A stretch of DNA of 10,949 bases. Origin: a virus (taxonomy: Duplodnaviria > Heunggongvirae > Uroviricota > Caudoviricetes). Shown here one piece after another: positions 5,657-10,949 of this stretch. Every line of letters begins with the position of its first letter. Positions within the stretch are counted from its first letter, which is position 1. The notes under the pieces are model-generated. The model saw nothing but the letters and a program-made list of their open reading frames with translations. It made no database searches and was not told where the DNA came from. Where the stretch lies: the IMG/VR virus record IMGVR_UViG_2630968911_000004, positions 1 to 10,949 of that record; one strand, written 5' to 3'. The translations under genes were made by a program, and so were the position numbers.

Positions 5657-6251
5657 ATCGATTAACAGAAACCACAGAACGATGAGGCTAACCGTGGGTA
5701 AGCATCACTGGAAAGTAGAAAAACAGCCTGAGTGGTACGTGAAAGCTGTCAGAAAAACTATCGCAAAGTTGCCGGGTGGTTACGCTGAAGCAGCTGACTG
5801 GCTGGATGTAACAGAGAACGCATTATTTAACCGCCTTCGTGCTGATGGCGATCAGATTTTCCCGCTGGGATGGGCAATGATTTTGCAACGTGCTGGTGGA
5901 ACTCACTTCATTGCTGATGCTGTGGCGCAGTCTGCTAATGGCGTCTTTGTGTCTCTTCCTGACGTCGAGGATGTGGACAACGCCGATATTAACCAGCGTC
6001 TGCTGGAAGTCATTGAACAGATCGGCAGTTATTCAAAACAGATTCGTTCAGCAATCGAAGACGGTGTAGTGGAACCGCATGAGAAGACAGCAATTAACGA
6101 CGAGCTGTATCTCTCAATTTCGAAGCTGCAGGAGCATGCAGCACTTGTCTACAAAATTTTTTGCATTTCAGAAAGTAATGACGCCCGCGAGTGTGCAGCT
6201 CCGGGCGTCGTGGCGTCGATTGCTTCTGGTTGTGGAGAAACTAACGCATGA
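5637..6251 (+). CDS. CII-like regulatory protein (phage 186 CII / Phage_CP76 family-like), about 204 aa
   Basis: Located immediately after cro. Segment [36 protein letters not shown] follows the pattern of the phage 186 CII core as I recall it. Start is uncertain: ATG 5637 or 5649, or the GTG 5580 used by the track; none has a strong SD. Confidence 0.65.
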
Positions 6252-6586
6252 ACAGTTTAACAACACACTACCGTCGCTCGCAACTGATTGCGCTTCCTGT
6301 ACCGGGTGGAAAAGCGAAGGTGGAGTATTGCTATGCAGTAAATGTACCAGGTGACAGGGAAATTGTAACCCACAGCTTTGCAGAGTGGGCTGTGGGTGAT
6401 TTCAACCGGCAGAAGGAGACAGTCCTTTGCGACAAGTTAACCGCTGGTTCAAAGATCACTACGGAGTGCCCGTCAGAGTCATTCGTTGGGAGCCGGAAAC
6501 ACAACGGGTTATCTACCTCCGCGAAGGCTATGAGCATGAGTGCTTCAGTCCGCTCGAACAGTTTCGTCGTAAATTCAGGGAAATAG
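6248..6586 (+). CDS. hypothetical protein; 3' portion is probably out of frame (frameshift or pseudogene)
   Basis: ATG 6248 overlaps the TGA of the CII-like gene (ATGA). The first 60 aa look protein-like but the C-terminal third is Ser-rich and junk-like, while a different frame is clearly protein-like from about 6430 to 6603. Confidence 0.35.
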
Positions 6587-6603
6587 AGGTCGGTCATGAG
6601 CAC
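6427..6603 (+). CDS. candidate small protein, 58 aa, TTG start (not in the supplied ORF track)
   Basis: AAGGAG SD at 6413-6418, 8 nt spacer, TTG at 6427-6429; product [59 protein letters not shown]; TAA at 6601-6603 overlaps the next gene's ATG region. It may instead be the frameshifted C-terminus of the 6248 gene. Confidence 0.35.
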
Positions 6604-6856
6604 TAAATTAACCGGCTATGTATGGGATGGTTGCGCAGCGTCAGGCATGAAATTATCCAGCGTGGCAATTATGGCCCGCCTGGCTGATTTCAGTAATGAC
6701 GAAGGTGTGTGCTGGCCATCAATTGAAACCATTGCCCGCCAGATTGGCGCGGGGATGAGTACCGTCAGAACGGCTATCGCACGGCTGGAAGCAGAAGGCT
6801 GGTTAACGCGTAAGGCGCGTCGCCAGGGTATCCGGAGTAATCCATGCATCGTATAG
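6596..6856 (+). CDS. winged-helix (HTH_36-like) phage replication-protein N-terminal domain protein, 86 aa; possibly truncated
   Basis: AGAGG SD 6 nt upstream of ATG 6596. Segment [50 protein letters not shown] is the wHTH seen at the N-terminus of phage replication initiators. The ORF ends 13 nt into the tail fiber gene, with no replication or structural genes between. Confidence 0.65.
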
Positions 6857-7776
6857 ACACGAAAACCGCGCAGAAGGATAAGTTCGGCGCGGGTAAGAAC
6901 GGTTTTACCCGTGGTAACCCCCAGACCGGCACACCTGCCACCGATCTGGATGATGACTACTTTGACATGTTGCAGGAAGAACTTTGTAGCGTGGTGGAGG
7001 CCTCCGGTGCCAGCCTGGAGAAGGAGCGGCACGACCAGTTGCTTACCGCGCTTCGTGCGCTGCTGTTAAGCCGCAAGAATCCGTTTGGTGATATCAAATC
7101 GGATGGCACGGTGAAAACGGCTCTCGAAAACCTTGGTTTGGGAGATGGCTCGGGGCGTTACAGCAAAACTGTCGTTTTTTCATCGTCGGGTTCATATACG
7201 TGGCCAGCTGACGTAAAACGAATTGACGTTATTCTGACTGCGGCGGGCGGCGGTGGCGGTGGATGTAACGCGGAGAACGCAAATCAGACATTTTCAGGGG
7301 CTGGCGGAGGAGCCGGAGGTACTGTTTTTGCCACTATTTATGCGACAGACAACGATGCCGGGCCAGGAACCTATACAGTGACAATTGGCAGCGGTGGTAG
7401 TGGTGCCAATGGGTCAGGGTCTGGAAATAATGGCGGTAATAGTTCGTTCATGACATTAACTGCGCTCGGCGGCCAGGGTGGGCAATGGGGCGGCGCTACA
7501 AATACCGCTGGCGGGCGCGGTGGCTCAGGCTCTGGCGGTTATAAAACTGAACAAGGCGGAGACGGTTCAGACGGACAGGCGGGCCAGGCGCTATTAGTAG
7601 GCAATGGGGCATCGAGCTATTGGGGTGGCGGCGGCCGCGCTGGGCAACTGAGCGGTAATCCTGGAGTTTGCTCTGGCTCCGGCGGCGGGGGTGCATACGA
7701 TAATAGCTATTCACACACGTCAGGACGTGGCGGGCACGGAGCTAATGGCGTGCTGGTAATTCGGGAGTACATGTAA
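6844..7776 (+). CDS. phage tail fiber protein, 310 aa, Gly-rich C-terminal repeats
   Basis: GGAG SD 6 nt upstream of ATG 6844; the frame has a stop immediately upstream, so there is no hidden N-terminal extension. Long Gly/Ser/Ala/Asn-rich repeats are typical of side tail fiber distal domains. Followed directly by a tail fiber assembly gene. Confidence 0.85.
7121..7146. other. Hin/Gin/Pin-family invertase crossover-like site inside the tail fiber gene
   Basis: CTCTCGAAAACC-TT-GGTTTGGGAGAT with a perfect 12 bp palindromic core AAACC-TT-GGTTT. By my recollection it resembles hixL (TTCTTGAAAACC-AA-GGTTTTTGATAA) and gix, matching about 10 of 12 positions in the left half and 8 of 12 in the right half against hixL. 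Confidence 0.35.
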
Positions 7777-8181
7777 ATGAATGATATCTATGCAGTTGTT
7801 GATAATAACGTTGTTATTAATGTCATTATCTGGGACGGAATTTCTGAATGGAAACCAGAGGCTGGTAATTTAGTTCCGTTAAACGGCGATGCTGGCATCG
7901 GTTGGTCATATTCAGACGGAGTATTTACCGCGCCACCTCCCCCAGAACGCTCTCACAACGCGTTAGTTGCGGAGGCTGAGCTGCAGAAATCAGCACTACT
8001 GACCGTAGCAAATAACGCAATAGCACCGCTGCAGGATGCCGTTGATTTGGAAATGGTGACAGACGATGAACAGGCGTTACTGCTGGCGTGGAAAAAATAC
8101 AGGGTACTGCTGAACCGTGTTGATACCTCAGCGGCACCCGAAATAGAGTGGCCTACGCAACCGGGGGAGCGGGCCAGTTGA
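7777..8181 (+). CDS. tail fiber assembly protein (Tfa/Caudo_TAP family), 134 aa
   Basis: C-terminal [44 protein letters not shown] closely matches the lambda Tfa C-terminus as recalled. ATG 7777 immediately follows the tail fiber stop. Confidence 0.85.
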
Positions 8182-8302
8182 TATCAGGCGCAGCGTCAGC
8201 ATCAACTGCTGTCACTGCGTCGATGTAGTCGAGTACCGCATTCAGCCGCGTTTTTTCATCATCAGTCAGTTTGCGGCCTGCACTTCTCCGTTGACATCTT
8301 TG
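8153..8302 (-). pseudogene. remnant of a second, inverted tail fiber assembly gene (tfaS-like), C-terminal about 40 codons only
   Basis: Minus-strand frame encodes ...[38 protein letters not shown], with the Tfa C-terminal signature (APDI-WP). It has no start codon and is bounded upstream by TAA (plus 8303-8305). It converges on and overlaps the intact tfa 3' end by about 29 nt. Confidence 0.5.
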
Positions 8303-8522
8303 TTATATGGTACAACTGCGCAGAGGCCTGTCTCTTCAATTGTGCCAGTTGAATACTACGATACAACGCTCGGCCTTCCTGTTTGGTGGAACATTACCAC
8401 ATCTACGAGGAAAAGAGCTTACGGTACTAATACTTAGACTTTAAATTTATTTTCGTTTATTAATCATTGAAGTAAAACAAATTATTAGGCGAAAATGTAG
8501 CGAATTTATGTACTTATACATG

Positions 8523-8569
8523 TTACCCTGAAGGAAAATTCTTTTAATAAACCTTCTCCTTCAGGGTAA
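8523..8569. repeat. 13 bp perfect inverted repeat (TTACCCTGAAGGA / TCCTTCAGGGTAA) with a 21 nt AT-rich loop, just 3' of gtrC
   Basis: Read directly. It sits 6 nt downstream of the gtrC stop, at the junction between the AT-rich gtr module and the tail fiber module. Could be a bidirectional terminator or a protein-binding site; no clean U-tract. Confidence 0.4.
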
Positions 8570-8574
8570 AATAA

Positions 8575-10032
8575 TTATTTGACGTAAATGTGGTTTCTGT
8601 ATTTGACAAAAATCACATCACACACACTTTCAATATCTTCAGGTTGACCATAAATTTTCTTCACAATATTCAATTGTTCTTTATTCTCAAGAATAAAGAA
8701 ATTATTTCCTTTGTTATACCATTCGCTATTTGTAAGCCAGTTGTCTCTTTTAATTTCATTGTTATTAAAAAGTATATTTGCTATTTTTATGTCTCCATTC
8801 ACACCAACAGAGTTGGTAAATGCAAAAGGGGCATATCCATAATTTACTTTGTGCTCGTTGATTTTTTCTCTAATACATGATATCTGATTGTATCTATTAT
8901 CAGTGGAGCCATTAATATTTATTGTTTTAATTCCTGATATGATGCCCAAAAAAGCTATTAATAAAATAATGCTTTTTTTATTAAATTTAGATCTTGACAA
9001 AAGAATTACTGCCATAATGAAGACGGGAACAAGGTATCTTATTGTCCATATATTTCTTGGGAGGTTACTACCAATATAAGCAGATGTCATGATTAAAATA
9101 GACAATGACAAACATATATCAATAACGCTTCTGTTTTTAAAAAGATTTCTGAAAGTGAAGTAAATTAATGCAACAACACCAGCAAAGCGTATTGCTTTAG
9201 ATAATAGATGCAGTGATGGTGTTATCTGCTCACCAAATATGTCTGCATTAAAAAACAATAAAGTTCCACTTACTGCGGTATTTATATTAACTAAAATATT
9301 GTCATACTCAACAATCTTTACATCTGTTAGTCCTGGCAATGTAAAGCTTCCAAGGTTTAAAAACAAAAAACCGATCGCCTTGGAAATTAAATATGAAGAA
9401 AACAATCCAGCCATTATAATAAGGTATTTCTTTTTTCTTTCCTTGTGCAACAAAAACATTGCTGCTAATGTTAGCGGTGCAACGTATATATAGACTGAGA
9501 TATTATCGCTAAAAATAGCCATAGAGGACAGTATGGTTGAAAAGTATACAAATAATATTTTTTCTGTTTTAATATACTTTTCTGTAAATATTAAGCATCC
9601 AATGATAAATATGTATGTACCCATGTGAATGCACGCTGAAAGCATTGATGTAACAGCCATGTCAGCAGGAAAAACAAAGTAGAATATAATTAGCGCTAAT
9701 GCTAATGATTTATTTGTAGACAGCCTGTATATCAAAAATATCACAGTAGCATACATCGCTGGTGGTATTATATATGCAAGCTCACTGCTGTAGCCAAATA
9801 ATATAGAGGCGATCGCATAAAAAGATACTTCTGTAAAGTAAAAAGGAACCGTGGATAGCATCCATCCATGAAGTAAGTAATTACCTTCTGACATATCCTT
9901 ACCAAGCAAAAGCACTGTTGCCGCATCTGTATTTGGTGGGAATATGTTTAAGCTGGCAAAGTGATATAGCATAAATAATGACGCAAATAATAAAATTACG
10001 AATATAAATTTAATTTGTTTTTTGAAAATCAT
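8575..10032 (-). CDS. GtrC-type serotype-specific O-antigen glucosyltransferase, polytopic membrane protein, 485 aa (YfdI-like position)
   Basis: Very AT-rich, highly hydrophobic with many predicted TM segments. Its ATG (10030-10032) overlaps the gtrB stop (TAATG), so it is translationally coupled downstream of gtrB, the canonical position of gtrC. Confidence 0.8.
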   Translation of the reverse strand: MIFKKQIKFIFVILLFASLFMLYHFASLNIFPPNTDAATVLLLGKDMSEGNYLLHGWMLSTVPFYFTEVSFYAIASILFGYSSELAYIIPPAMYATVIFLIYRLSTNKSLALALIIFYFVFPADMAVTSMLSACIHMGTYIFIIGCLIFTEKYIKTEKILFVYFSTILSSMAIFSDNISVYIYVAPLTLAAMFLLHKERKKKYLIIMAGLFSSYLISKAIGFLFLNLGSFTLPGLTDVKIVEYDNILVNINTAVSGTLLFFNADIFGEQITPSLHLLSKAIRFAGVVALIYFTFRNLFKNRSVIDICLSLSILIMTSAYIGSNLPRNIWTIRYLVPVFIMAVILLSRSKFNKKSIILLIAFLGIISGIKTININGSTDNRYNQISCIREKINEHKVNYGYAPFAFTNSVGVNGDIKIANILFNNNEIKRDNWLTNSEWYNKGNNFFILENKEQLNIVKKIYGQPEDIESVCDVIFVKYRNHIYVK

Positions 10033-10949
10033 TATTTATTATCCTTTAATATATACTTTGGACGCTGCTTAACCTCAACGTAGATACGCCCTATGTACTC
10101 ACCTAGCACTCCAATACCAATTAACTGGATGCCGCCAAGAAATAATATTGATACAAGAATTGAAGGGTATCCAGGTACATTATTACCAAAAATTAATTTA
10201 TCAATTATCATCCATGAACCGTATGTAAATGATATACATGCAATAAATAACCCAATATAGGTCCACATGCGCAGCGGGAATGTTGAGAAGCTAGTGATCC
10301 CTTCCAGCGCCAAGTTCCAGAGCTTCCATCCATTGAACTTTGTGCTTCCTGCAACGCGTTCTGCTCGCGCATATTCTACGACTTCGGTTCGACCACCAAC
10401 CCAGCTCAGCACACCCTTCATAAACAGGTTTCGTTCTGGCATGAGCTTAATGTTTTCCACTACTTCGCGAGACATGAGCCGGAAGTCGCCAACATTCTCT
10501 TCTATCTGAGGGTTGCTGATTTTGTTATGAAGTTTATAGAACCACTCAGCAGATTTACGCTTCAGCCTGCTGTCAGTGGAGCGGTCAGAGCGTTTAGCCA
10601 GAACCATATCTGCACCGGCCTGCCATTTCTCTATCAAGTGAGGAATAACTTCGATAGGGTCTTGCAGATCAACGTCAATCGGGATAATTGCCTCCCCGGT
10701 AGCATGGTCCAGACCTGCGAACAGGGCGGGTTCTTTGCCGAAGTTACGTGTGAACGACAGCGAAACAACAAGCGGGTCGGCAACAGCAAGCTCGTTGATA
10801 ATTGATTCTGTAGCGTCTTTGCTGCCATCGTTTATGAAGACTATCTCGACTTCATGCTGCTGAAGCCCTTCAAATTCGCGCACAGTTTTATAAAAAATAG
10901 GTATCGTGGCCTCTTCGTTAAAGACCGGAACGACTAAAGAAATTTTCAT
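10032..10949 (-). CDS. gtrB: bactoprenol glucosyltransferase GtrB (GT2 family), 305 aa
   Basis: Near-identity over the full length to E. coli YfdH/GtrB as I recall it ([13 protein letters not shown]..., DGSKDATE..., C-terminal TM helices). ATG at 10947-10949, so the gene is complete and starts exactly at the window edge. Confidence 0.9.

Follow-up and report, generated by a model that had tools for sequence, protein, structure and literature searches.

The minus strand of positions 8153-8281 in the 10,949-nt stretch of DNA analysed here (the window) carries the last 43 codons and the stop codon of a TfaE-type tail fibre assembly gene, which encodes about 200 aa when whole. This remnant, tfa', is very probably the dead relic of a Pin/Gin-type invertible tail-fibre segment, fused by one rearrangement to the end of a tailspike gene, with the fibre locked thereafter. 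The remnant itself is already known, being a RefSeq pseudogene and the positional counterpart of tfaS in prophage CPS-53 of K-12. Already annotated, and with a named K-12 pseudogene as its counterpart, it is therefore an ordinary feature.

The minus strand was translated from position 8308; the frame terminates at a stop codon (8153-8155) and is bounded upstream by an in-frame stop (8303-8305). Residues 11-47 of the peptide align to positions 94-130 of the 131-position Pfam profile Caudo_TAP (PF02413), with an E-value of 6.1e-11 and a score of 43 bits, above the curated cut-off of 22.1. When the intact 200-aa Tfa of a phage-plasmid was searched against the window by tblastn, its residues 159-200 matched 8281-8156 at 83% identity (E=1e-18), and TfaE of the e14 prophage matched the same stretch at 71% identity (E=7e-15). 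The similarity to Tfa is confirmed and lies far beyond chance. The original prediction of a Tfa C-terminus on this strand, which would have fallen had tblastn with Tfa proteins detected no such similarity, is thus borne out by both the profile and the tblastn matches. It had placed the remnant at 8153-8302; the Tfa homology accounts for 8153-8281, while the other 21 nt (8282-8302), encoding the seven codons QRCQRRS, are an open frame without similarity to Tfa. When the 49-aa remnant was used as the tblastn query on the phage collection, no match at E<=1e-3 appeared, probably owing to the short query and filtering; DNA and profile searches did succeed. Two large protein searches yielded nothing beyond short entries, labelled 'partial' or hypothetical, with sequences identical to the remnants, and no closer intact tfa' or tailspike.

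Complete Caudo_TAP genes among the relatives have a start codon and an N-terminal part and encode about 135-200 aa. The tfa' remnant has neither: about 157 N-terminal codons are absent, leaving only residues 158/159-200 of 200. No ATG occurs in its frame, and the sole start-like codon is a GTG that would yield 20 aa. Since the start and N-terminal part are lacking and a stop lies upstream at 8303-8305, tfa' is a pseudogene fragment and not a functional member of the family, as had been predicted from the same two deficiencies. The PGAP annotation of an identical genome in RefSeq agrees, marking exactly this interval as a pseudogene, 'tail fiber assembly protein, incomplete, missing N-terminus'.

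The remnant converges on an intact tail fibre assembly (chaperone) gene, tfa, on the plus strand at 7777-8181, which encodes 134 aa, matches Caudo_TAP at E=1.8e-32 and is annotated as a tail fiber assembly protein. The 3' ends of the two genes overlap, as originally proposed; the overlap measures 29 nt (8153-8181), and these bases double as the final nine or so codons and stop codon of the intact tfa. An overlap of the same 29 nt is found between tfaP and tfaE of e14, between yfdK and tfaS of K-12, in an intact segment with a recombinase gene on a phage-plasmid (L005) and between gp21 and gp22 of SfIV. When six viral-contig copies, a small sample, were aligned to window positions 8100-8460, variable sites were found in the non-overlapping part of tfa' and none in the end of tfa. 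At the centre of the segment there are thus two convergent chaperone genes, one an intact tfa and the other a 43-codon remnant overlapping it by 29 nt, with the second tip absent. This arrangement is consistent with the relic of an invertible segment and not with a working one. The view that a tail-to-tail pair of tfa genes marks the centre of a G/P/C-type invertible segment, also put forward in the original prediction, is supported by the same overlap in e14 and the phage-plasmid. Within the intact tfa, window positions 7944-8132 on the plus strand match the Rfam family IS009 at 44.9 bits (E=7e-9) against a gathering score of 117; this sub-threshold match most likely reflects similarity to tfa sequence and not an RNA gene.

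Independent support for an invertible-segment origin comes from the fibre gene. This gene (6844-7776, plus strand) encodes 310 aa; its N-terminus is constant and StfP-like, while the variable tip after it is rich in glycine and matches Gly_rich_2 over residues 114-307 (E=1e-18). It is 96% identical in nucleotide sequence to e14 stfP, up to position 7148 only. Homology to both e14 stfP and K-12 yfdL stops at 7145-7148, at a Pin/Gin-type crossover site, CTCTCGAAAACCTTGGTTTGGGAGAT, which occupies 7121-7146; beyond it lies a different tip. Such a division of the fibre gene into constant and variable parts at the crossover site is characteristic of Gin/Pin/Cin-type segments. Its sequence agrees with the left repeat of the e14 P segment at all but one base, and it is the single such site in the window, where none is expected by chance. 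It lies within conserved coding sequence (…LENLGLG…), and its conservation is therefore no proof of past use by a recombinase. No second crossover site was found in the window with up to three mismatches, nor by searching for the AAACCNNGGTTT core with one mismatch, so the pair of inverted sites that bounds a Gin/Pin/Cin-type segment is absent. Upstream, an early region at 5670-6829 (ymfL/ymfM/oweE-like, 98% identical to e14) is fused straight to the start of the fibre gene (6829-6844), and the left breakpoint of this join coincides with the oweE/aaaE fusion point of K-12 e14 (L004, position 1404). The window copy lacks any head, tail or baseplate genes, which relatives such as strain C4 possess.

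Gin/Pin/Cin-type segments also have an adjacent serine invertase gene. Searches of the whole window by tblastn with PinE and with the phage-plasmid recombinase found no PinE-like gene (best E=0.87), and a tblastn search for an alternative tip in the window likewise found none. The segment in the window cannot invert on its own. Relatives of the remnant are encoded at 80 loci in viral contigs, 63 of which carry other alleles (<=76% identity) and 17 this remnant. The other alleles are mostly ORFs of 197-206 aa, and a PinE-like gene lies within 4 kb at 45 of the 63 loci, against none of the 17 remnant loci, which again favours descent from an invertible segment. None of the 17 has an ATG, and two contain an extra stop. 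The 29-nt overlap is present at 45 of the 63 intact-type loci and at 15 of the 17 remnant loci. The fibre/tfa allele of the window was found with an intact far half in none of the complete E. coli genomes, phage records or plasmid records, and the nearest intact copy of tfa' matches the remnant at 83% in protein and about 75% in DNA sequence. Cousins, and not a direct ancestor, therefore provide the basis for the ancestral state; the comparison with intact relatives that had been suggested as a check gave a layout, though not a same-allele intact copy.

The G segment of Mu and the C segment of P1 are homologous to the P segment of e14. The repeats of the P segment have been reported and its inversion documented (PMC12529663). 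Like the window, e14 has a constant fibre N-terminus (96% identical between stfP and the window gene up to the crossover site), a crossover site whose sequence differs from that of the window by one base, and convergent tfa genes with the 29-nt overlap. At 71% identity, the C-terminus of TfaE matches the remnant. In e14, but not in the window, tfaE is complete and is accompanied by the alternative tip stfE, a second site in inverted orientation and the invertase gene pinE. The phage-plasmid segment shows the full layout of fibre, tfa, a 200-aa tfa', two alternative tip genes and a recombinase gene, and its tfa' is the closest intact relative of the remnant.

The remnant corresponds most directly to tfaS of K-12 (b2353, CPS-53/KplE1, at argW), which belongs to the same prophage family. 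Both are C-terminal fragments of a TfaE-type protein that lie between an intact tfa and gtr genes, and both are followed by a tailspike-like 3' remnant; tfaS converges on yfdK with the 29-nt overlap. However, tfaS retains 100 codons against 43 in the window, and the fibre tip, tfa allele, tailspike remnant and gtrS type all differ. Given these differences, the breakpoints in K-12 and in the window do not represent the same event. The K-12 gene yodE (RyeG RNA), which encodes a translated and toxic protein of 48 aa (PMC7498339), lies in frame inside an open frame of about 100 codons adjoining tfaS (L003, NC_000913.3, 6498-6827, minus strand). This open frame resembles a podovirus tail fibre/tailspike protein at its extreme C-terminus (E=2e-12), and from this similarity YodE appears to derive from a tailspike remnant next to tfaS. 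The passages on yodE, tfaS and CPS-53 in the Grad-seq paper (PMC7498339) do not state a tailspike origin for YodE.

The Shigella serotype-converting phages SfIV and SfV carry the same kind of Mu-like module for baseplate and fibre, with gtr genes and an integrase gene after it, and both have an orphan crossover site in the fibre gene. In SfIV, gp21 and gp22 are convergent tfa genes without an invertase, but 174 codons of tfa' remain, ended by an IS element. A tblastn search of the SfV locus with TfaE, PinE, StfE, two tailspikes and the Tfa', recombinase and tips of the phage-plasmid gave no match at E<=1e-2, and SfV therefore has no detectable tfa' remnant. Retention of tfa' thus ranges from the intact gene in e14 through 174 aa (IS-cut) in SfIV, 100 aa in K-12 tfaS and 43 aa in the window to none in SfV, while all five keep the crossover site in the fibre gene.

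Beyond tfa', the minus strand continues through a junction (8282-8305) made up of the QRCQRRS codons and the in-frame stop, where the plus strand is the start of a 3' remnant of a tailspike gene. The tailspike remnant spans 8279/8309-8437 (plus strand), that is, the last 41-51 or so codons and the stop (8435-8437). In a tblastn search against the whole phage collection it matched the BUCT789 tailspike and CBA120 orf212 at their extreme C-termini (E=2e-7 to 1e-6), with local alignments over 8309-8431 and 8279-8431. A TTG-started ORF of 48 codons occupies 8291-8437 on the same strand. The tailspike remnant (…GTTAQRPVSSIVPVEYYDTTLGLPVWWN…stop) is unannotated in the RefSeq records inspected. The original prediction held that a deletion had removed the alternative fiber tip; the tip is indeed absent, and the break can now be described more precisely as a junction to the 3' remnant of a tailspike gene.

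A strong hairpin with a 13-bp stem (UUACCCUGAAGGA…UCCUUCAGGGUAA) at 8523-8571, detected as an inverted repeat with a fold z-score of -5.0, lies between the tailspike remnant and the stop of a convergent gtrS-like gene. It is likely a bidirectional transcription terminator. A simple consensus terminator scan did not call this hairpin. The remainder of the window (8575-10949, minus strand) is O-antigen modification cargo, as judged by its ORFs, nucleotide identity to K-12 yfdH and gene context. It comprises a serotype-specific glucosyltransferase-like ORF of 485 aa (8575-10032) and gtrB (10032-10949), which runs off the window and is 76% identical in nucleotide sequence to K-12 yfdH over 10075-10949. 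For the 485-aa membrane protein encoded in the gtrS position, Pfam gave no match at E<=1. Relatives encode in this position either a protein only about 32% identical to it or an acyltransferase. In strain G4/9 the annotation shows the gtrS region in broken form, as a short hypothetical protein and a frameshifted GT2, which suggests that the window derives from another carrier in which this region is intact.

E. coli G4/9 and strain 135 match the remnant region at 100% identity. In G4/9 it belongs to a degraded prophage between dsdX/torI and intS/argW, the position of CPS-53/KplE1, and the window matches K-12 CPS-53 at torI-yfdT, yfdR-yfdP and yfdH, with the same order of genes as in K-12. Every one of the 69 complete E. 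coli genomes that carry this allele has the same junction, as do all 17 viral contigs, several of which are about 40 kb long; the QRCQRRS codons, despite their lack of homology to Tfa, are kept in 17 of 17 viral-contig copies. Carriers include prophages with complete baseplate and tail/fibre modules, both at argW and near bioA/ybhB, so that the same junction occurs at two integration sites, and at least five different cargo genes lie 3' of it. The junction is therefore old and common to all carriers, and is not a lesion peculiar to the window. Only one arrangement occurs across the 69 genomes and 17 viral contigs, which is consistent with a locked segment. Copies of the junction are near-identical to about position 8370; from there on they diverge within the tailspike remnant, mostly in frame. 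This divergence is in step with the at least five different downstream O-antigen-modification genes, a pattern that suggests recombination within a conserved tailspike tail. The tail allele and the cargo are not strictly linked.

From the homology, truncation, overlap, orphan site, shared junction, and missing invertase and alternative tip, we infer both an ancestral layout and its loss in a single event. The ancestor would have contained, in order, the constant fibre part, a crossover site, tip 1, a rightward tfa, a leftward tfa', tip 2, a second crossover site and an invertase gene, a layout still retained by e14. The serine invertase would have flipped the segment, swapping the fibre tip together with its chaperone and so changing host range. 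One rearrangement then probably joined tfa', at about codon 158, to the last 45 or so codons of a tailspike gene that would have stood ahead of the phage end with the O-antigen-modification and integrase genes. In this event the phage would have lost the N-terminal part of tfa', the alternative tip, the second crossover site, the invertase gene and most of the tailspike gene, after which the fibre would have been locked in one orientation. The event could equally have been an internal deletion or an illegitimate join of two phage modules. The remnant is probably not translated into anything useful, and selection would act only on its last 29 nt, since these also encode the end of the intact tfa. 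The fusion is old and was inherited by a whole lineage of SfV/e14-like prophages, of which the window holds a further degraded, CPS-53/KplE1-like copy at argW.

One alternative would remove the need for a second tfa gene altogether, by treating the minus-strand similarity as a chance open frame or as a mirror effect of the intact tfa read backwards. The two genes do overlap, and the surroundings of the overlap are partly palindromic (TGGCC…GGCCA), but only 29 of the 129 homologous bases are shared with the plus-strand tfa. The remaining 100 nt lie outside that gene and are still 71-83% identical to Tfa C-termini, with E-values down to 1e-18, and we therefore reject such an artefact as wildly improbable. 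It is also improbable, if to a lesser degree, that the region has been co-opted. By analogy with RyeG/YodE, which lies between tfaS and gtrS in K-12 CPS-53, either the remnant or the 48-codon plus-strand ORF at 8291-8437 might yield a small RNA or protein; yodE occupies part of the tailspike-like 3' remnant beside tfaS, in the same frame, and the TTG-started ORF of the window occupies a matching position. Yet the two 48-aa sequences, compared side by side by eye, share no evident similarity. Consensus promoter and terminator scans around the remnant gave nothing convincing, Rfam matches in 8182-8440 did not rise above noise, the 48-codon ORF is frameshifted in one lineage, and the tfa' frame has no ATG.

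A third reading is compatible with descent of tfa' from an invertible segment and differs from our preferred account only in how the far half was lost. Here the tail module of an SfV/e14-like myovirus would have been joined illegitimately to that end of a P22-like podovirus which carries the tailspike, gtr/oac and integrase genes, with breakpoints in the dispensable tfa' and tailspike genes, and the conserved C-terminal motif of the tailspike would then have provided a homologous 'adapter' for swapping O-antigen-modification cassettes. The tailspike 3' remnant directly adjoining tfa' points in this direction, as do the variety of cargo genes and integration sites behind one junction and the mostly in-frame divergence of its copies after about 8370. 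So does K-12 CPS-53, where the same architecture recurs with a different tailspike-like remnant and a different length of tfa'. Against this, no full-length tailspike donor close to the remnant was found, the best matches being 41-49% identical, and the loose linkage between tail allele and cargo also tells against such an exchange. We judge it to have a little less than an even chance of being correct.

Relic of a locked invertible segment though it very probably is, the tfa' fragment is in itself of little weight, recording a host-range switch that a prophage lineage once held and then lost. Its identical breakpoint is of use as a marker that ties together SfV/e14-like prophages at different chromosomal sites and with different O-antigen-modification genes. 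The graded retention of tfa', from e14 through SfIV, K-12 tfaS and the window to SfV, illustrates the erosion of invertible fibre segments. More speculatively, the tfa'/tailspike scar might be a conserved recombination adapter: through homologous recombination at the short conserved C-terminal motif of the tailspike (GTTAQRP…YYDTTLG), kept beside the dead tfa', myovirus prophages of the SfV type would trade cassettes for O-antigen modification, among them several gtr types and an acyltransferase, with phages that bear tailspikes, and tailspike remnants of this sort might also give rise to small genes like RyeG/YodE; we regard this as unlikely on balance. The adjacent tailspike remnant is more informative than tfa' on the movement of serotype-conversion cassettes between phage types.
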